Below are positions 13,486-62,616 of a stretch of 64,000 bases of DNA, in pieces. The DNA comes from a virus, in the UHGV virus genome UHGV-0084588. One strand, 5' to 3'. A program made the position numbers and the translations under genes. Below the pieces are notes generated by a model. That model did not search any database. It was not told where the DNA came from and saw nothing but the letters and a program-made list of their open reading frames with translations. How positions within the stretch are numbered: position 1 is the first letter of the stretch; each line of letters begins with the position of its first letter.

Positions 13486-13528
13486 ACCAACACTACAATT
13501 GTATTAAACCTTATAAGGATTAAGTAAA

Positions 13529-15376
13529 ATGGCTAAAGAGTTTATTGACAATCAAAACGACGTTGTGACTGGTGCTGCTGGTTCTGCTGCAGATCCAATT
13601 CCGTCTTTCGGTGGCGCGGGAGCTGCTACTGTGGATAATACCAATGCGGCCAACGCTTTTGGTGGGATGTCTAAAAACATCTCCACTTTCGATAAAGCTT
13701 TCGGATACATGTCTTTCGTGTCCACTGCTTCTCAGTTCACTAGCCTGATTGAGAAGATGGCGGAGAAGAACACATACCTGCGTAACTTCCGTTGGGGTGT
13801 CATTGACGGCATCAACTCTGAAATGGGTTCTGCTGCATACGTGGCTGGTCCGTCCGGCGATAACCATAACGAATGGCTCTACGGCATCCTGTTCTTTGAA
13901 CATGGCCAGTCCATCCGTTTCTACGAAATCAACGGTAAAGAAAACTACTACACCCTGGCGCAGCTGTTCAGTCAAGAAGGTGTGATGAACAACATCACTA
14001 ACCAGATTGCAACTCAACACAATCTGCCGAGCGTACAGTTCATGGTAATGAACTGCGTACCGGAACTGGGTAAAACCATGAACGAAGAATGGGCTAACCA
14101 GCTCATGGGCCAGATTGCACTGGGTATCTTCGGTCGTCATTCTGGCTACCTGGGCTACCTGAAAATGACCCGTTCTGATCGCTTCACCGCGCAAGTTAGC
14201 GTAGTTGAAGAAGGTTCTGTAACTGACGTTAACGGTTCCGCACAGCGTGCTGACCTGATGGTTGTGGTTGACCATACTCGTACCGGCAACAACGATAATA
14301 ACCCGACGCTGTTCTCTTCTGAACGCCTCCAGAATTATCCGAGCGTTGCAGGTGTTGGTTACATCAACCTCCGCCATAAAGGTAAACCTCAGACTCTGAC
14401 CAACGGTACTCAGGACCTGCGTCAGCTGGAAGCCGAAGTGGTTGTTTCCCTGATGGATTCTCAGTCCTCTGGGGCAATGGCACCTATCGAGCGTCAGCTG
14501 ATTGAACTGGCCGCGTTCGCACAAATCGCCACTATCGGTGGCTGGCGTGAACGTTTCATGCAGTCGCTGAACAAAACCGATCGCCGCTTCTCCCGCGTTC
14601 TGGAGTATGTAGAATGGGGCAGCGAAAAACCTGACCTGAGCAAAATCGACGGTAACCGTGAAGTTATCGAGAAATGCCTGGACACCTTCGCTAACCCGAC
14701 TGCAGCTCTGGTGGTGAACCATCGTGCAGGTAACGGTATCGGTGGTCTGTCTACTCTCCTGAGCGAAATCGGGATGGGTAACACCAACGCACTGTACACC
14801 CTGTTCAACATCCTGGATAACATGGCCAGCAACGGTGCGACTAAGTTCAGCACTCGCTTCAAAGCACTGCTGGGCAATGTCACCAACTTCGAGTGCAAAC
14901 ACGTTGTTATTGCCGGTTGCCCGACCATCTCTGGCCAGTATTTCAGCAACAGCCAGAAACGTAGCTTCCAGGATATGGACTTGGTTTCCGCTCTGACTAA
15001 AGTGGGTGACAACCAACGCGATGCGATCGACTACATCAGTGCACAGTCCTACTCTCACCGCTATCTGAATGCGCGTGACCAGCGTCTGTACCTGCTGAAA
15101 ATGGCTGCGTCCATGTTCGGTAGCAAACAGCCGCAGGTAACGGGTGAAGCGTCTGACCTGGCGATCAATCCGTTGTTTGGTAAGGCACTGGTGGAATACA
15201 TCACCGAAAACTGCAACTTCCAGGTGAACGGTGTTACCGCAGCGAACAGCCTCACTCACTCTGTGTTTGTTAACACGGGTAATGAGAACTTCGCTCTGTC
15301 TGGTAGCGGTCCTAACGCATTTGGTAGCGATTTCGGTATGTCCTTCGCTGCAACTGACTGGCGTCCGACTTTCTAA
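13529..15376 (+). CDS. abundant 615-aa protein; candidate phage nuclear-shell (chimallin-like) protein, alternatively a major capsid protein
   Basis: Strong bias to E. coli-type optimal codons; tandem promoter repeats upstream; strong terminator downstream; lies directly upstream of the RNAP beta-prime N-terminal gene, which from memory matches the phiKZ gp54-gp55 arrangement. Confidence 0.45.
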   Translation: MAKEFIDNQNDVVTGAAGSAADPIPSFGGAGAATVDNTNAANAFGGMSKNISTFDKAFGYMSFVSTASQFTSLIEKMAEKNTYLRNFRWGVIDGINSEMGSAAYVAGPSGDNHNEWLYGILFFEHGQSIRFYEINGKENYYTLAQLFSQEGVMNNITNQIATQHNLPSVQFMVMNCVPELGKTMNEEWANQLMGQIALGIFGRHSGYLGYLKMTRSDRFTAQVSVVEEGSVTDVNGSAQRADLMVVVDHTRTGNNDNNPTLFSSERLQNYPSVAGVGYINLRHKGKPQTLTNGTQDLRQLEAEVVVSLMDSQSSGAMAPIERQLIELAAFAQIATIGGWRERFMQSLNKTDRRFSRVLEYVEWGSEKPDLSKIDGNREVIEKCLDTFANPTAALVVNHRAGNGIGGLSTLLSEIGMGNTNALYTLFNILDNMASNGATKFSTRFKALLGNVTNFECKHVVIAGCPTISGQYFSNSQKRSFQDMDLVSALTKVGDNQRDAIDYISAQSYSHRYLNARDQRLYLLKMAASMFGSKQPQVTGEASDLAINPLFGKALVEYITENCNFQVNGVTAANSLTHSVFVNTGNENFALSGSGPNAFGSDFGMSFAATDWRPTF

Positions 15377-15403
15377 TAAGTTGGTAAGTAGTAAGCAGTA
15401 GTT

Positions 15404-15447
15404 GAGGGACAGGGGAAAACCCCCTGTCCCTTCCCTCTCTTTTTTTG
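15404..15447 (+). terminator. rho-independent terminator
   Basis: hairpin gagggacagggg-aaaa-cccctgtccc followed by T-run. Confidence 0.7.
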
Positions 15448-15460
15448 TTGAGGATTCGGC

Positions 15461-16828
15461 GTGGAACATAAACTAGAATATTACGGGATTTCAGGGCGAC
15501 TAATTAGTCACGATAAAATGCTACGTGACTGTATACAAGAAGCGGAGGAAAAAGGCTACAAACCCCCGATTATTATCAATGACGTTGCTGCAACGATGGA
15601 TACCATCGAAGCGTCAGAGATGATTAACCAAATACTTCAAAACCGAATCGTTGATGAAACACTCAACTCGGCTCCTATTTGCAGTCTGACCTGCGAATCA
15701 CCTATTACCCATCGTTATAATCTTGGGTTACGTTGCCCACATTGTGGTCATGTTGTTTCTGAACATCGGATTACGTCCGAAGTTTGGCTACGTGCACCCG
15801 ATGAGATAGGTAACTTTATCAATCCACGTTTTTGGTCTCTCTTTAATGCTTTCTTTGGCTCTAAGCTGAAAAAATTTAATCGTAACAAAGTGACGGTAGA
15901 GCGTGGTTCTGATTTGCTGCTATGGCTAATCGATCCGTACTACCATCCAGAAAAGGACGAAGGAACACGTGCTCGTGTGGTGAAAAGAATCCTCAGCGAA
16001 CATGGTTTCGAACGGGGAATTCGAAACTTTATCGACCACCATCGAACCGTCTTTAATATCCTTACGTCCCCGGAAGCTTGGAAGGAGATTTATCCACCGA
16101 CGAAAAACAACCGTTATGAGAGTGAACGCGTACGCTTAGAATGGCGTGAGTTCTTTCAGGAACAATCGTTCTCATTCTTTCCAAGACACCTTCCGATTAT
16201 TTCATCGAAACTGATCGTTACAGAGGAGCGCCGACAAGGTATCTTTATCGATCCCGTTTACACCAGTGCCATCGATGCAGTAAAAAATGTGGCGTTGTTG
16301 TACACGAATGCACGTCGTATCGAACCACGATTTATTATTCGTCGCGCGATCAAAGCGAATCGACAACTTGCGTATTTCTATATTGACCATCGTCAGGAAG
16401 TGATGGAAGGTAAACCTGGGTTCTATCGGGCAAAACTCGGGTCAACGCACGTACCGTGGGGCGGACGTGTGACTATCTCTCCTATCTCTGAACCTCACGA
16501 TGCGTTGAAAGTTATTGCGCCTTGGCGTTGGTTAGTTCCGTTGGCGAGTGTTCACATTGAGAACAAGTTAGGTCGACGTGACTACACACCTCGACAGTGT
16601 GAACGAATTATTGCATTCGCGGCAATGCAGTATGTACCGTTGGTACATGAAATTATTAATGAGCTGATTAAAGAATCCCCCGGCGGATTCGGTTTAATGT
16701 TGGAAGTTCTACGTAACCCAACATTGGTTCAGCTTTCTATTCAGACATTGTTTATCTCGGCGGTACTGACAGATGTAACACAATGTTCTCTGCGTATTTC
16801 TGATCGCGTCATCAAAGCACCTAATGCT
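15461..16828 (+). CDS. RNA polymerase beta-prime-like subunit, N-terminal fragment, exon 1
   Basis: Zn-ribbon C-x4-C...C-x2-CG; GKPGFYRAKLG...GGRVTISP matches [41 protein letters not shown] matches NRAPTLHRLGIQAF; ends ...KAPNA where bacterial beta-prime has YNA|DFDGD; GTG start. Confidence 0.75.
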
Positions 16829-21167: not shown

Positions 21168-21812
21168 ATGGTCAATAAAAACTTCCTTAAAGAGAAATGG
21201 CTTTACCCACAGACTGAGCCGGATCAACAGGGCCGTACCCGTAAACTGGGCATTGAATTGAACGAATTCAATGGTGATGTGGAACTGATGAAATTCCACT
21301 ACTCCTTTGGTAAAGGCGAAGGTCTTTATTTCACCGCAGGCTATACTGTTTGCGTTGATATCTTTGAAACCCTGCGTACGGTGATGCAGAAACCCGAAAA
21401 AGTCGTTTTCAAATGGGAAGATGCAAAAGGTAAGAAGGCACCGGTTAGCTTACACGTAGGTCGTGATGAAAACCTGACACCGTTCTTTGCACTGAGCGGC
21501 GAGATCCCAGGGGTTGGTGCGCGTCAGAAGAAATTCTATTTCACTTATCCGAAAGGTTATCGTGTTTTCCGTAATGGACAACTGGTCTCCGATCTGGAAC
21601 TGGCAGAGCGTCAACTACGCGCGTTCCTGAAAAATGCGGATGTATTCCTGGAAGATTTCCGTGACAACTACAAACCGCGCGAGTTTAATAACGCGGGTGG
21701 TGGTAGTTACGGTCGCGGAGGTTACAATAACGGCGGCAATGGCGGCGGTTATAACAACCAGTCTGGTGCAAAAGCCCCAACACCAACTAACGATTTTGAC
21801 GATATTATTTAA
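21168..21812 (+). CDS. putative ssDNA-binding protein, or nucleic-acid-binding protein with an RGG/Gly-Tyr low-complexity linker
   Basis: C-terminal Gly-rich linker GGGSYGRGGYNNGGNGGGYNN and acidic tip NDFDDII resembling E. coli SSB tail DFDDDIPF; strongly optimised codons. Confidence 0.4.
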   Translation: MVNKNFLKEKWLYPQTEPDQQGRTRKLGIELNEFNGDVELMKFHYSFGKGEGLYFTAGYTVCVDIFETLRTVMQKPEKVVFKWEDAKGKKAPVSLHVGRDENLTPFFALSGEIPGVGARQKKFYFTYPKGYRVFRNGQLVSDLELAERQLRAFLKNADVFLEDFRDNYKPREFNNAGGGSYGRGGYNNGGNGGGYNNQSGAKAPTPTNDFDDII

Positions 21813-27073: not shown

Positions 27074-27096
27074 AATCGTTCCTAAAATAAGTGAGA

Positions 27097-27108
27097 TAGA
27101 TATTATCC
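27097..27108 (+). promoter_or_regulatory. TAGATATTATCC motif (candidate promoter/operator)
   Basis: Same family as 5585, 13388 and 13468; about 30 bp upstream of ATG 27137. Confidence 0.4.
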
Positions 27109-51018: not shown

Positions 51019-51579
51019 ATGTTTGAGCACGATAGTCCAGAATTTAATGTTGCTGTAGAGCGCATTAAATCCTACATGTCGATTTTATCGAAAAACCCAA
51101 TCGACACACACGATGACGAAGTTATTCACAAAACGCTGGAAGCCGCCGCCGTTGTTTTACCGTATTTTCGTCTGATGGCTGCGGATTCTTTGCAGCAAGT
51201 ATTATATGACGAATATCCGCAGGTCGGATTTACCTTTAATACGTTTTATAACGAAAGCGTAGCCTTCCTGCTGGATGGTAAGCGACGTAATGTGACGTTA
51301 GGGCAGTGGTCGACTTTGCTGTCGTCGTATATGAACGATGTTCGTAACACGAAGAATGTTGAACAGACGGGTGCATTAGGCTCGCGTCTGTTAGCTGCTG
51401 CGTTTGGTCGCCGAGGTACTGTACGTAATATGGGCTCCGCTCACCAATCCATTGAGTGTAGCAAACGTCTTTTATCTTATGCAGACCATGAACTGCTGGC
51501 ACGCTGGATGACACGCCCGAACGGGTTGTCCGACATGATCTCGTCGTTAGCAGTGTTTTTGAAAATCGCACGTCCCTAA
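51019..51579 (+). CDS. hypothetical protein (186 aa)
   Basis: ATG with aggagagg RBS. Confidence 0.55.
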   Translation: MFEHDSPEFNVAVERIKSYMSILSKNPIDTHDDEVIHKTLEAAAVVLPYFRLMAADSLQQVLYDEYPQVGFTFNTFYNESVAFLLDGKRRNVTLGQWSTLLSSYMNDVRNTKNVEQTGALGSRLLAAAFGRRGTVRNMGSAHQSIECSKRLLSYADHELLARWMTRPNGLSDMISSLAVFLKIARP

Positions 51580-51610
51580 GGGGGCCCCTCATTCTAGGGG
51601 CGTGTAATTG

Positions 51611-51622
51611 GGTTATATAACC
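51611..51622. promoter_or_regulatory. perfect 12-bp palindrome GGTTATATAACC (candidate promoter/operator)
   Basis: 17 bp upstream of ATG 51639; AT core TATATAAC resembles the TATATTAC element. Confidence 0.3.
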
Positions 51623-51638
51623 AAAGGAAATAAACGAA

Positions 51639-52910
51639 ATGGCAAATTTCGCAAAAACTCGCGCCGCTCGTGAATCGATGGAAGCGGCCGATGAAGTAAT
51701 CGACGGTATCAGCAACGTTGAACCGGCAGAAGAGAACCTGGACGTCCAACTTGCGGACGTTGCATCTATCGACGGTCAGCTCGATCAGCTGGAAACCGAC
51801 GGTGAAACCCTGGCTGCCGATACCGAGCGTACTGAAGACGCTATCGAACAGGCGGAAGAAGCCGTTGCTAACGGTGAAGAAATGCCGGAAGAAGCGGTTG
51901 CCCTGCACGAAGTGGCACAGGAATCCATCGCACGTCGTTGGTGCCTGGAACGTACTAAACTGGCTCGCGAATCCTATCGTCGTGGTCGTGGTATGACTGC
52001 TGCTGCCCAGGAAGGTTGGAAAGAAACCCTGAAAGATCTTTACGATCGTTTCATTCAGTTCTGTAAAGAAGTGATTGCGAAGATCAAAGACCTGAAACTG
52101 AAATATTTCAACGTCGGTAAGACTGCACAGAAACGTGCGAAGAAATATCAGGAAATGCTGCGTAAGCTGGGCAAACAGAAGAAAGATGAGATCTCCGGTG
52201 GCTTTATCACCAAGCTGTCCATCGAAGGTAAATTCGATGCTGCTGGCTCCATCGCTATTGCGAAAGAAGTTACCGCTGGTAAAGCTAAAGGTTCCATCAG
52301 TGTTCTGGAAAAACAAGCTGGCGAAGCTGTAACTGCTGTTGCCAAAGGTGACGATGACGCATTCAAAGCGATGCGTGGCGATCAGCCGGTAGAACTGTTT
52401 GGTAAAGCTGCGTCTAAACTGCGCTCTCTGCCGAACTTTGAAAAAGGTGATGCGTCTAAACTGCTGGCTCTGCCGGGTAACGCATACGTCCAGGCTGGTA
52501 CTAAAGAACTGGCTGGCGGCCACAAGTTCACCGCAATTGCATTCATGAGCACTGGCGACGCTTCTGACGATAAAGACGTGAAAACTCCGTCTGTTTCTGA
52601 AATGGCTGGTGCTGCTTCTGCTCTGGAAGCGATCGGTAAAGGCTTCGAAGCTGTACTGAAAGATTTCCGTGCTTATGACGCCGAAATCGTGAAGCTGCAA
52701 CAGGCTGCTGAGAAAGCTGCTAACGCGCTGAACAACGAAAAAGACGAAAGCAAATGGGATGGCCTGCGTAACGCACGTCAAGCTGCTGATTGGTCTGTTA
52801 AGAACTACCAGACCCTGAACCGCGCCGTTAGCTATGTTGCTAACACCGTTATTAGCGGTCTGAACGGCTACCTGGGTGCTGGTATCGGTGCTTACGAAAA
52901 GTCTAAATAA
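51639..52910 (+). CDS. abundant acidic protein, paralog A (423 aa); function unknown
   Basis: Strongly optimised codons; shares N-terminus MANF..ARESME, internal RKLGKQKKDEISGGFI and C-terminus GLNGYLGAGIGAYEKSK with 52993. Confidence 0.65.
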   Translation: MANFAKTRAARESMEAADEVIDGISNVEPAEENLDVQLADVASIDGQLDQLETDGETLAADTERTEDAIEQAEEAVANGEEMPEEAVALHEVAQESIARRWCLERTKLARESYRRGRGMTAAAQEGWKETLKDLYDRFIQFCKEVIAKIKDLKLKYFNVGKTAQKRAKKYQEMLRKLGKQKKDEISGGFITKLSIEGKFDAAGSIAIAKEVTAGKAKGSISVLEKQAGEAVTAVAKGDDDAFKAMRGDQPVELFGKAASKLRSLPNFEKGDASKLLALPGNAYVQAGTKELAGGHKFTAIAFMSTGDASDDKDVKTPSVSEMAGAASALEAIGKGFEAVLKDFRAYDAEIVKLQQAAEKAANALNNEKDESKWDGLRNARQAADWSVKNYQTLNRAVSYVANTVISGLNGYLGAGIGAYEKSK

Positions 52911-52992
52911 TAATTTAGATTCGTAGTTCCGTACAGTTCTTGAAATAAATCATCAGGGGAACAACGCGTTCCCCTTAGAGGAAAAGCTTAAA

Positions 52993-54258
52993 ATGGCGAA
53001 TTTCTACAAAAACAAAATTGCTCGTGAGTCTATGGAGTCTACCGCTACTGTAGTTCCAGACGGCATCGAACTGCCAGCAGAATCCGTAGAAGGTACTCTG
53101 GCCGATATCGAGCATGACACCAAACCGATCGAAGCCCTGGACGCTGACGCTGAACTGCTGGCAGAAGACGGCGACGAAACTGACGCTCAGCTGGATGTTC
53201 TGGATGAAGCTCAGGCCGCTGCTGACGGTGAAGGTGCTGGCGAAGACGGCGAAGACCCGATGGACGCCGAAGAAGATATGCCGGACGACGCTGCGACCGC
53301 GCTGGACGTTGCTCAGGAATCTATCCGTTCTCGTTGGAACTTCGAACACCGTTCTTCTGTTGCTCACGAATCTTACGGTTCTCGTAACCGTCGCCAGGTG
53401 GCTCGTGAATCCCTGTGGGAAGACATTAAAGCCTTCCTGGGCCGTATTCTCGATTGGCTGAAAGAACAAGGCCGTAAACTGAAAGATCGCTGGCTGAAAT
53501 TCCACAACCAGGGTAAATCTATCCAGGCGCGTGCTAAGAAATACGATGAAGTTATTCGTAAGCTGGGCAAACAGAAGAAAGATGAGATCTCTGGTGGCTT
53601 CATCAAGTCTCTGTCTATCGATGGCAAGTTCGTCGGTGATAATATTCCGAAACTGAAAGGTATCCTTAACCAGGTTTCCACATTCTATAGCGCTAAGATG
53701 CCTGCCATGGCCTCTAAAGCTGCTGAAGTGGTTTCCGATGTTACCAAAGGTAACGGTGTTAAAGTTGAAAAACTGAAAGCCGACTTTACCGAACTGTCCA
53801 AACAAGACAGTCTCCAAAACTTCAAACTCGGTAACATGGCAGTGAAAACCGAGTATGACAACGAAGGCGGCTTCAGCTCCACTTTTGTTGAAGCTGAAAA
53901 TAGCGTTGAAACTAGCGTGAAAACTCCGTCTGTTGGCGAACTGGCTAAAATCAATGCTCTCTTCAACGAAGTGGGTAAACAGATCGAGAAGAACGTTCAG
54001 GATTATCGTAAAGTCGAAAGCGCGCGGAAAACTTTTGAAGATAATATCGATAAGCTCCTGAAAGAAGTCGATAAAGTTAAGATCGACGAAAAACCGGAAC
54101 TGACCGAAGGTGTACGTGCTGCCCGTCGTTTCATCACCAGCGTTAACCAGGGCCTGTCTCTGGGTGAGAAGGTTATTGCTTCTACTCAGAAACACCTGGC
54201 CGGTGGTCTGAACGGCTACCTGAGTGCTGGTATCGGCGCTTACGAAAAATCTAAATAA
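52993..54258 (+). CDS. abundant acidic protein, paralog B (421 aa); function unknown
   Basis: Same conserved blocks as paralog A; acidic D/E-rich N-terminal region. Confidence 0.65.
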   Translation: MANFYKNKIARESMESTATVVPDGIELPAESVEGTLADIEHDTKPIEALDADAELLAEDGDETDAQLDVLDEAQAAADGEGAGEDGEDPMDAEEDMPDDAATALDVAQESIRSRWNFEHRSSVAHESYGSRNRRQVARESLWEDIKAFLGRILDWLKEQGRKLKDRWLKFHNQGKSIQARAKKYDEVIRKLGKQKKDEISGGFIKSLSIDGKFVGDNIPKLKGILNQVSTFYSAKMPAMASKAAEVVSDVTKGNGVKVEKLKADFTELSKQDSLQNFKLGNMAVKTEYDNEGGFSSTFVEAENSVETSVKTPSVGELAKINALFNEVGKQIEKNVQDYRKVESARKTFEDNIDKLLKEVDKVKIDEKPELTEGVRAARRFITSVNQGLSLGEKVIASTQKHLAGGLNGYLSAGIGAYEKSK

Positions 54259-54275
54259 TCTCTGATTGTTTAGTA

Positions 54276-54323
54276 AGAGAACCACCCTGTAATGGGGTGG
54301 TTCTCTCTTTTCTTTTTTTTTTC
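54276..54323 (+). terminator. rho-independent terminator
   Basis: hairpin gagaaccaccc-tgtaat-ggggtggttctc followed by a long T-run. Confidence 0.75.
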
Positions 54324-54335
54324 GATTAAAAACAA

Positions 54336-54362
54336 TTTCAGATATATATTACCTAGGTGAGA
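54336..54362 (+). promoter_or_regulatory. candidate strong phage promoter, 27-mer TTTCAGATATATATTACCTAGGTGAGA
   Basis: Identical 27-mer at 62590-62616; contains TATATTAC; about 50 bp upstream of ATG 54413. Confidence 0.55.
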
Positions 54363-55660: not shown

Positions 55661-55966
55661 ATGAAACTCAAAGCCGATGCGATATGTGTTGTTAAGTTGC
55701 CGGAAAGTAATGTGGTGTACTGCGTAAAACGGCTGGACATCCGATTACTGATACCGAGACTTAATGAACCTGGTTGGAATGGGGATTTGATGATTCCACT
55801 GATCAGACCACTTCCTACGAACGATGGTAATATAACGCATTTGCACATGGAAGCCAAAGGGCGGTACATCACCGTTTACCATTTGGCCGATCAGTACAAA
55901 ACGAGTCGGTATACCCGAAGGGATTTTATACGGCATTTAAGGGGCTCACTGGAGATAGAGAAATGA
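55661..55966 (+). CDS. hypothetical protein (101 aa)
   Basis: ATG 2 nt after upstream stop; ATGA overlap with DHFR gene. Confidence 0.5.
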   Translation: MKLKADAICVVKLPESNVVYCVKRLDIRLLIPRLNEPGWNGDLMIPLIRPLPTNDGNITHLHMEAKGRYITVYHLADQYKTSRYTRRDFIRHLRGSLEIEK

Positions 55967-56499
55967 CAATTACAGTTTCGATGATAGCTGCTGCTGGGTT
56001 GAATAACGAAATTGGGAAAGACAATAAACTACCGTGGCGTATTCCCGACGACTTAAAGAATTTTAAGGCACTTACATCAGGTAAAGTTATCGTGATGGGA
56101 AGCAAGACATGGGAATCGTTAGGGTATAAACCCCTACCCAATCGTCACCACGTTGTGTTAACGAGAAGACCTGGTGGTGTGCCAGAAATCGATGGGGTGC
56201 TTAACCTTAAGGGTGAAATGGGTTCGATTATTGAATTCCTCAAAACCGAGGTTGAGAAAAAGGGTTATCCTAAGGAAATCTTTATTATCGGTGGCGCAGA
56301 AATTTACCATCAGGCGTTACCTTACGTGGATAAGATTTACTTGTCACGTGTGGAGGTTAAAGTTGATGGTGCAGATGCGTTCTTTCCTGAAATCGATCGT
56401 AGCAAGTTTGGACTGGTTTATAACTTAACACACGCTTCCAAACCGGATAGCGATGTTCCACGTTGGCATTATCAGATTTGGAAAAGAGATGGGCACTGA
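55963..56499 (+). CDS. folA: dihydrofolate reductase
   Basis: SMIAAAGLNNEIGKDNKLPWRIPDDLKNFKALTSGKVIVMGSKTWESLGYKPLPNRHHVVLTR matches the DHFR N-terminal signature; 178 aa. Confidence 0.9.
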   Translation: MTITVSMIAAAGLNNEIGKDNKLPWRIPDDLKNFKALTSGKVIVMGSKTWESLGYKPLPNRHHVVLTRRPGGVPEIDGVLNLKGEMGSIIEFLKTEVEKKGYPKEIFIIGGAEIYHQALPYVDKIYLSRVEVKVDGADAFFPEIDRSKFGLVYNLTHASKPDSDVPRWHYQIWKRDGH

Positions 56500-62589: not shown

Positions 62590-62616
62590 TTTCAGATATA
62601 TATTACCTAGGTGAGA
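62590..62616 (+). promoter_or_regulatory. candidate strong phage promoter, 27-mer TTTCAGATATATATTACCTAGGTGAGA (second copy)
   Basis: Identical to 54336-54362; about 47 bp upstream of ATG 62663. Confidence 0.55.

Follow-up and report, generated by a model that had tools for sequence, protein, structure and literature searches.

Two adjacent genes in a 64,000-nucleotide stretch of the virus genome UHGV-0084588 (the whole of which we call the window) very probably encode the two major internal head, or ejection, proteins of a jumbo phage. They are the open reading frames (ORFs) listed at 51639-52910 (+ strand, 423 residues; ORF1) and 52993-54258 (+ strand, 421 residues; ORF2), and we read them as orthologues of gp53 and gp54 of Salmonella phage SPN3US within the family PF12699, with a probability of roughly 87%. 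Homology, orthology, synteny, motif conservation, charge layout, codon bias and flanking signals come from the present analysis, while copy number, cleavage, retention in the head and injection are carried over from experiments on SPN3US, phiKZ and Goslar. The initial annotation of the window had described the pair as proteins of unknown function, which is overstated because the family, location, processing and abundance of the orthologues have all been established: this is a known, experimentally characterised protein family, here in a previously uncatalogued SPN3US relative. Both genes should be annotated as internal head/ejection proteins; the closest deposited relatives say "hypothetical protein".

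Family membership, orthology and genomic context

Both proteins matched the PF12699 model (phiKZ_IP, phiKZ-like phage internal head proteins), ORF1 with 247.6 bits (E=3.1e-73, model positions 2-387 of 387) and ORF2 with 195.7 bits (E=1.8e-57, positions 2-386 of 387), against a gathering cut-off of 27 bits. They also matched phrog_2497, "internal head protein", with E-values of 1e-147 (ORF1) and 7e-120 (ORF2). Aligned to each other by BLASTP, the two showed 36% identity and 51% positives (E=2e-56); both ORFs lie at exactly the coordinates given for the tandem paralogues proposed at 51639-54258.

ORF1 was 69% identical to SPN3US gp53, 33% to gp54 and 74% to Asesino gp70; ORF2 was 62% identical to gp54 and 34% to gp53. 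A neighbour-joining tree of seven genomes with both paralogues, rooted on a single-copy Vibrio phage as the outgroup, separated two clean clades, with ORF1 in the gp53 type and ORF2 in the gp54 type, and the duplication is therefore older than the split of the compared Salmonella, Erwinia and Cronobacter jumbo phages. By identity and tree together, each ORF is the one-to-one orthologue of one member of SPN3US paralog family A (gp53/gp54). Two copies were present in 62 of 62 related enterobacterial phage records and one in both Vibrio relatives; no Pseudomonas phage was found by BLAST with these proteins.

The surrounding genes tell the same story of descent. ORFs of 368, 311 and 186 residues (the gp50-gp52 orthologues) precede ORF1 and ORF2, with DHFR later at 55963-56499, and this gp50-gp54-to-DHFR order is common to SPN3US and 11 other phages. 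The 186-residue gene directly upstream of ORF1 (51019-51579, + strand) matched PF25618, the PhiKZ gp91 vertex-binding protein, with 30.3 bits (E=4.5e-7; cut-off 27 bits), so that, as in phiKZ and Goslar, a gene of the capsid vertex complex adjoins the internal head pair. The phage is a jumbo phage of the SPN3US/Asesino kind, about 222 kb in genome length; its best nucleotide identity in INPHARED is about 76%, and the phage itself is not in that collection.

Charge layout, cleavage motifs and predicted maturation

Each protein begins acidic and then turns basic: the net charge over residues 1-100 is -22 in ORF1 and -29 in ORF2, with an isoelectric point (pI) of 4.05, and the rest of each protein is basic. 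The acidic N-terminal regions had been recognised initially. Set within and at the end of them are A-x-E motifs, ARE-12, AQE-95, ARE-111 and AQE-125 in ORF1, followed by GWKETLKDLYDR (starting GWKETLK), and ARE-12, AQE-109, AHE-126 and ARE-139 in ORF2, followed by SLWEDIK. In an alignment of 21 sequences, the A and E of the four motif columns were invariant or at least 90% conserved, and the E12/S13 and E95/S96 motifs were invariant throughout.

These positions can be compared directly with mapped cleavage sites. The SPN3US prohead protease gp245 cuts gp53 at ARE-12, AQE-95 and AQE-125, leaving the mature N-terminus GWKETLKDLFER (PMC10052503, Table 2, Fig. 3), and cuts gp54 at AQE-124 and ARE-137, leaving SLWDDIK (PMC10052503); recombinant gp245 cleaves gp53 in vitro (PMC7411985, PMC10052503). 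AQE-124 of gp54 aligns in the ARE-111 column and ARE-137 of gp54 in the AQE-125 column of gp53, so for each of the four columns there is experimental evidence of cleavage in one or both SPN3US paralogues. Downstream of the maturation sites, too, the residues agree with SPN3US (GWKETLKDL and SLW(E/D)DIK). The motifs of both ORFs thus occupy the positions found in substrates of giant-phage prohead proteases (MEROPS S80; SPN3US gp245), maturation site included. The ARESME block singled out in the initial annotation is real and common to both proteins, but its main significance had been missed: it spans two protease-type motifs, ARE/S and SME/, the first of which (ARE-12) has been mapped as a site where gp245 cuts SPN3US gp53 (PMC10052503). 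Cleavage at the last motif of each protein would divide it into an acidic propeptide and a basic mature protein (Table 1), and the propeptide might balance the charge of the basic body up to the point of proteolysis and DNA entry.

Codon usage and expected abundance

Codon bias was scored as the fraction of enterobacterial optimal codons (Fop; the list of Ikemura and of Sharp and Li) for 58 genes of the window. ORF1 (0.793) and ORF2 (0.768) ranked first and second, against a mean of 0.491 (standard deviation 0.070) for the other 56 genes, which corresponds to z = 4.3 and 3.9; Wright's Nc was 31.4 and 35.7, respectively, against a median of 50. The pair had initially been credited with the strongest codon optimisation apart from the gene starting at 13529, and the bias is even stronger than that, with the 13529 gene third at 0.764. 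A reference-free principal component analysis of relative synonymous codon usage placed these three genes together at one extreme. In support of high expression, the third-ranked gene is the orthologue of another very abundant prohead protein, SPN3US gp22 (PMC7411985); codon bias by itself singled out the window's three highest-copy head-assembly proteins.

The same bias has a consequence for gene calling. Neither ORF1 nor ORF2 contains a TTA, CTA or TCA codon, and the opposite strand therefore lacks in-frame stops and carries long shadow ORFs. Antisense ORFs at 51594-52781 (- strand, 395 residues), 52975-54285 (- strand, 436 residues) and 13520-15469 (- strand, 649 residues) oppose the three most codon-biased genes of the window, two of them exceeding the real genes in length, and a longest-ORF gene caller would be misled by them. 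The fourth-highest bias belongs to a gene at 21168-21812 (+ strand, 214 residues; Fop 0.656), which matched phrog_3284 (unknown function) and gave no match in a Pfam search; its product may be another high-abundance protein.

Proposed role in the head

Experiments on relatives give the pair its expected location and fate. SPN3US gp53 and gp54, the "paralog family A", classed as high-abundance ejection proteins, are the most abundant proteins of the head after the major capsid protein, at conservatively more than 600 copies each, and lie inside the capsid with the DNA, gp243 being needed for their incorporation (PMC5694885). Membership of both ORFs in PF12699 and these copy numbers bear out the initial expectation of very abundant products such as inner-body proteins. 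In capsids of a protease-deficient mutant, uncleaved gp53 and gp54 form an open T=1 inner shell, and in mature heads they are retained and rearranged (PMC7552025). In phiKZ, the PF12699 members gp93, gp95 and gp97 are injected along with the DNA, arrive in the early lipid vesicle and afterwards travel with the phage nucleus (bioRxiv 10.1101/2024.03.24.586471). Injection of PF12699 proteins has also been reported for Goslar, one of them being present at about 2,150 copies per virion (bioRxiv 10.64898/2026.04.21.720040). Across chimalliviruses, the family amounts to tens of megadaltons of protein inside the head. The suggestion that the products might be nucleus-associated holds only in that injected phiKZ family members later travel with the nucleus; in the sense of a nuclear shell it is wrong, because the chimallin of SPN3US is gp244 (PMC9365700). 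Searches of PDB sequences with ORF1, ORF2 and the family profile returned no chimallin chain down to E=1.

Put together, these results suggest the following course of events. Both genes would be expressed late and at a very high level as a two-gene unit with enterobacterial codons, strong ribosome-binding sites and a strong terminator. The precursors would consist of a 12-residue leader resembling a capsid-targeting signal, an acidic region of about 110-125 residues and a basic, helix-rich body, and hundreds of copies of each would enter the prohead by co-assembly with the major capsid protein. The orthologue of the gp245 protease would then cut ORF1 after E12, E95, E111 and E125 and ORF2 after E12, E109, E126 and E139, reducing the acidic propeptide to small pieces, and the basic mature proteins of about 31-32 kDa would remain in the DNA-filled head until injected into the host with the genome.

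Several points weigh against this reading. Abundance, cleavage and ejection rest wholly on orthology at 62-69% identity. The AQE-124 motif of SPN3US gp54 is altered to AHE-126 in ORF2, and composition would already predict about half of the A-x-E motifs seen in the propeptides (8 seen, about 4.0 predicted; 6 seen, about 3.1 predicted), so the argument for cleavage rests on positional conservation and not on motif counts. The cognate protease gene lies outside the 64-kb window, at an expected distance of about 170 kb. As to function after injection, a 2026 preprint speaks of "a key unsolved mystery" in connection with this family (bioRxiv 10.64898/2026.04.21.720040). Finally, N-terminal fragments of phiKZ gp93 and gp162 stay on the inner capsid surface as cementing fibres (PMC11297242), and the clearing of the propeptide from the head may therefore hold only in part.

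Comparison with known systems

The resemblance to SPN3US gp53/gp54 extends to tandem order, neighbouring genes, a length of about 420 residues, the MANFxKxxxARESxE leader, the A-x-E columns, the mature N-termini, the acidic-propeptide/basic-body layout and the C-terminal G(L/V)NGYxxAGIGAYEKSK. Unlike SPN3US, from which the genome differs at about a quarter of positions (about 75% nucleotide identity), the paralogues here agree at 11 of 16 leader residues and not at 15 of 16, both carry Met-14 (ESME), and AHE-126 stands in place of AQE-124 of gp54; the internal block is the same in both paralogues only in the present phage.

More distant relatives include phiKZ gp93, gp95, gp97 and gp162 and Goslar gp53-gp58, which likewise belong to PF12699, lie beside vertex-binding-complex genes, are helix-rich and present in high copy in the head, are cut after Glu by an S80-family protease and are injected with the DNA. 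Their similarity to this pair is too low for BLAST. The systems also differ in how the family is deployed: phiKZ has 5-8 paralogues at about 100-200 copies each and Goslar one dominant protein, whereas phages of the SPN3US type carry exactly two, in roughly equal amounts. The protease recognises S/A/G-x-E in phiKZ and A-x-E in SPN3US. The T4 internal proteins are alike in mode, being small and basic, packed with the DNA in hundreds of copies, brought into the prohead by an N-terminal leader of which a prohead protease, cutting after Glu, then frees them, and injected with the genome. In contrast to the present pair, to which they show no homology, they are of about 8-21 kDa and have a leader of 10-19 residues cut at (L/I)-x-E, without a long acidic propeptide.

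The comparison of 12 phages adds handles on the family, namely four positionally invariant cleavage motifs, a strictly conserved switch from acidic propeptide to basic body, and a co-variation of leader and tail that suggests a shared docking partner. The remaining value of the pair lies in these co-varying termini and in the role of the family after injection.

Possible retention of a propeptide fragment

The proteins might have a dual role that extends the ejection-protein reading, with the E12-E95 fragment staying on the inner capsid lattice as a cementing fibre while the body is free or ejected. In phiKZ, residues 14-84 of gp93 bridge neighbouring hexamers inside the capsid, starting at the E13/S14 cleavage site (PMC11297242), and peptides of the gp53 propeptide are still detected in purified SPN3US heads (PMC10052503); here the motifs at E12 and E95 are invariant. 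However, no sequence similarity can be detected between the gp93 fragment and the SPN3US-type propeptide, and a family-profile search of PDB sequences gave nothing relevant. The AlphaFold2 model of ORF1 predicts long helices at 34-77 and 84-100 and not an S-shaped arm-helix-arm, and SPN3US mass spectrometry reports most of the propeptide signal as lost. We regard a dual role as rather unlikely.

Co-variation of the termini and origin of the shared blocks

In 30-column windows, identity between ORF1 and ORF2 reached 0.53 near the N-terminus, rose to 0.60-0.77 about the internal block and fell to 0.13-0.25 over most of the body, in accordance with the earlier description of paralogues that have diverged outside a few shared blocks. 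Of those blocks, the N-terminal one (MANFxKxxxARESME) has 11 of the first 16 residues identical, and the internal one, RKLGKQKKDEISGGFI, is an exact 16-residue match. The C-termini had been called identical and are not quite so: GLNGYLGAGIGAYEKSK and GLNGYLSAGIGAYEKSK agree at 16 of 17 residues (G vs S), with the last 10 identical.

Across the 12 phages, the two ends of the proteins behave differently from the rest. Over residues 1-16, ORF1-type and ORF2-type proteins scored 0.83 within genomes against 0.64 between genomes (permutation p=2e-4), and from residue 401 to the end 0.56 against 0.50 (permutation p=2e-4), whereas in the protein body paralogues within a genome were no more alike than between genomes. 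Met-14 (ESME), present in both paralogues here, is unique among the 12 phages, and the C-terminal tails read EKSK, AKG, xKK or xKA clade by clade, matching in both paralogues. That the N-termini are identical over 15 residues within SPN3US had already been noted (PMC5694885); the cross-phage leader pattern and the matching behaviour of the tails extend that observation.

One explanation is that the shared blocks stem from recent tandem duplication or ongoing gene conversion. The internal block favours it, since 46 of its 48 nucleotides are identical between the paralogues here, with a 35-nucleotide identical run, against 65-75% in five other phages. So do the variable leader residues (NFxxxxx), which are 0.81 identical between same-genome paralogues and about 0.56 between orthologues. 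A recent duplication, however, is at odds with two ancient clades common to 12 phages of several genera and with an overall identity of just 36%. Against conversion, synonymous differences occur in every conserved block, the sharing of synonymous codons at the N-terminus is 0.77 within against 0.71 between genomes (permutation p=0.13), and the 14 of 16 identical codons in the internal block, compared with about 9.7 expected from codon bias, are a post hoc count that fails correction for choosing the best block. We consider this origin improbable and, given the synonymous differences in each block and the lack of a significant N-terminal synonymous excess, reject recent conversion as the cause of the shared blocks, although the RKLGKQKKDEISGGFI block may have undergone conversion over a short tract in this lineage alone. 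The 35-nucleotide run takes in the less-preferred codons AAG, GAT and GAG.

Termini that co-vary without a significant synonymous excess favour co-adaptation to a shared, phage-specific partner over recent conversion. We tentatively suggest, at somewhat less than even odds, that a docking signal in two parts, made up of the 12-residue leader and the C-terminal tail, co-evolves between same-genome paralogues, because both must fit the same partner, which might for instance be the capsid protein, the protease or an incorporation factor like gp243.

Predicted structure and proposed fates of the mature body

Chimallivirus DNA is sheltered, before the protein nucleus forms, in a lipid-bounded early phage infection (EPI) vesicle. 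A confident AlphaFold2 model of ORF1 was obtained from a 43-sequence alignment (predicted local distance difference test score 83.9, predicted template modelling score 0.81), with helices at 119-174, 201-236, 319-366 and 371-417 in the body and a small beta domain at about 276-315, the RKLGKQKKDEISGGFI block lying at the junction of the first long helix with the beta strands. Structure prediction had been proposed as a check in the initial annotation. A Foldseek search of the model against the PDB returned nothing significant.

Three ClyA-family toxins recurred among the weak top hits (MakB, 6t8d; SmhA, 7a26/7a27; NheA, 4k1p), and a membrane-active role was therefore considered, in which the mature basic bodies, resembling ClyA-type toxins in their helix bundle and beta-tongue, would remodel the host inner membrane after injection and help to build or line the EPI vesicle. 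Injected phiKZ gp93, also of PF12699, co-localises with a membrane dye and pulls down membrane proteins (bioRxiv 10.1101/2024.03.24.586471). Yet the resemblance to ClyA is weak and non-significant, no significant and specific match to the helical tail and hydrophobic beta-tongue head of the ClyA-family alpha-pore-forming toxins was found, and we grade the idea as unsupported and very improbable. A docking signal at the termini is the more modest and the more likely proposal.

Least credible of all is a pure scaffold or core that builds the prohead interior and is then degraded and expelled like T4 gp22 or P22 gp8: the initial annotation's "scaffold" is apt insofar as uncleaved SPN3US orthologues form an ordered T=1 shell in protease-deficient particles (PMC7552025), and heads are unstable when the proteins are not incorporated (gp243 amber mutant; PMC5694885), but the mature orthologues are kept in the head and not expelled, being, in purified virions and in tailless heads, among the top three proteins by abundance (PMC5694885, PMC10052503), and gp22, abundant in proheads and absent from virions (PMC7411985), is a better candidate, its orthologue being the separate gene at 13529-15376.

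Signals around the two genes

Flanking signals were compared in the spacers of the 12 phages, folded phage by phage (Table 1; predicted free energies are given as dG). The hairpin at 51584 has a stem that is invariant in 12 of 12 phages, only the loop varying, and has no second copy in the window; a weak terminator and an mRNA-end element are possible roles. The palindrome that follows it, GGTTATATAACC, is likewise unique in the window in its exact form and is replaced by GGTTATAACC or GGTTAACC at the same place in other phages; it is possibly a phage promoter or operator. Between the two genes, a hairpin occupies the same position in 12 of 12 phages, its stems differing yet still pairing (dG -12.6 to -18.7), and no T-run follows it in any of them. 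In contrast, a hairpin with a T-run follows the gp54 orthologue in all 12, again with stems that differ yet pair. Such conserved RNA hairpins could set the ratio of the two proteins.

A scan for sigma-70-like promoters over 48.5-55.2 kb found none on the + strand and two on the - strand, against 7.8 expected, and we therefore infer that a phage RNA polymerase transcribes the two-gene unit. An Rfam search of 51.4-54.5 kb gave a chance-level match only (E=0.9). The sequence AGATA(T/G)ATAT(T/C)A occurs in three + strand copies (54340-54351, 27094-27105 and 62594-62605; 0.05 expected). The first of these, about 30 nucleotides past the terminator of ORF2, sits in TTTCAGATATATATTACCTAGGTGAGATT, which is kept in 12 of 12 phages before the next gene. 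The motif is a candidate phage-polymerase promoter, possibly an early one.

Table 1. Features of the gene pair and its flanks, in window coordinates
Feature	Position	Strand	Remarks
Hairpin GCCCCT-cattct-AGGGGC	51584-51601	+	Just after the stop of the upstream phiKZ gp91-like gene; predicted dG -10 kcal/mol
Perfect palindrome GGTTATATAACC	51611-51622	+	Between the hairpin and the ORF1 ribosome-binding site
ORF1 Shine-Dalgarno-like AAAGGAA	51623-51629	+	Read from the sequence; aGGAA kept in relatives
ORF1 predicted propeptide	51639-52013	+	Residues 1-125; 13.7 kDa, pI 4.23, net charge -19; includes 12-residue leader
ORF1 predicted mature protein	52014-52907	+	Residues 126-423; 32.1 kDa, pI 9.37, net charge +11
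ORF1 internal block RKLGKQKKDEISGGFI	52161-52208	+	Residues 175-190; exact amino-acid match to ORF2
ORF1 C-terminal block GLNGYLGAGIGAYEKSK	52857-52907	+	Residues 407-423; 16/17 identical to ORF2
Intercistronic hairpin AGGGGAAC-aacgc-GTTCCCCT	52955-52975	+	Abuts the ORF2 ribosome-binding site; predicted dG -12.8
ORF2 Shine-Dalgarno TAGAGGAA	52976-52983	+	AGAGGA invariant in the 12-phage spacer alignment
ORF2 predicted propeptide	52993-53409	+	Residues 1-139; 15.1 kDa, pI 4.06, net charge -27
ORF2 predicted mature protein	53410-54255	+	Residues 140-421; 31.3 kDa, pI 9.44, net charge +11
ORF2 internal block RKLGKQKKDEISGGFI	53557-53604	+	Residues 189-204
ORF2 C-terminal block GLNGYLSAGIGAYEKSK	54205-54255	+	Position from the ORF1/ORF2 alignment
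Terminator-like element AGAGAACCACCC-tgtaat-GGGGTGGTTCTCT with T-rich tail	54276-54323	+	13-14 bp stem, predicted dG -22.5; from terminator scan

The 13529 gene and related records

The gene at 13529-15376 (+ strand, 615 residues; phrog_8316) is orthologous to SPN3US gp22 (51% identity), a protein that in that phage reaches the abundance of the capsid protein in prohead preparations, is not found in virions and has been proposed as a head scaffold or core (PMC7411985). We also considered the gene as a chimallin and rejected this: it has no PDB sequence match, it is the gp22 orthologue, and the chimallin of SPN3US is gp244 (PMC9365700). Its orthologues are labelled "hypothetical" in 62 of 62 phage records.

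Naming is uneven for the pair as well, one partial copy of an ORF1 homologue in an NCBI Escherichia coli record being called "preprotein translocase subunit YajC". ORF1 scored below threshold against YajC (PF02699; E=0.076, 13.4 bits, cut-off 28.2 bits), and the name appears to be a misannotation. The exact ORF1 protein was found on at least 23 contigs, among them two ENA metagenome-assembly scaffolds of about 221-223 kb, and assemblies of Salmonella, Shigella and E. coli isolates contain dozens of contigs of about 220-227 kb with gp54-like proteins. Deposited relatives at 91% identity carry the label of non-mobilizable "plasmids", one from E. coli 98232 (NZ_CP173450.1, 221,873 bp) and the other from Enterobacter ludwigii (NZ_CP134650.1, 222,441 bp). 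This looks like a jumbo-phage lineage that persists in isolates, as a carrier state or an episome.

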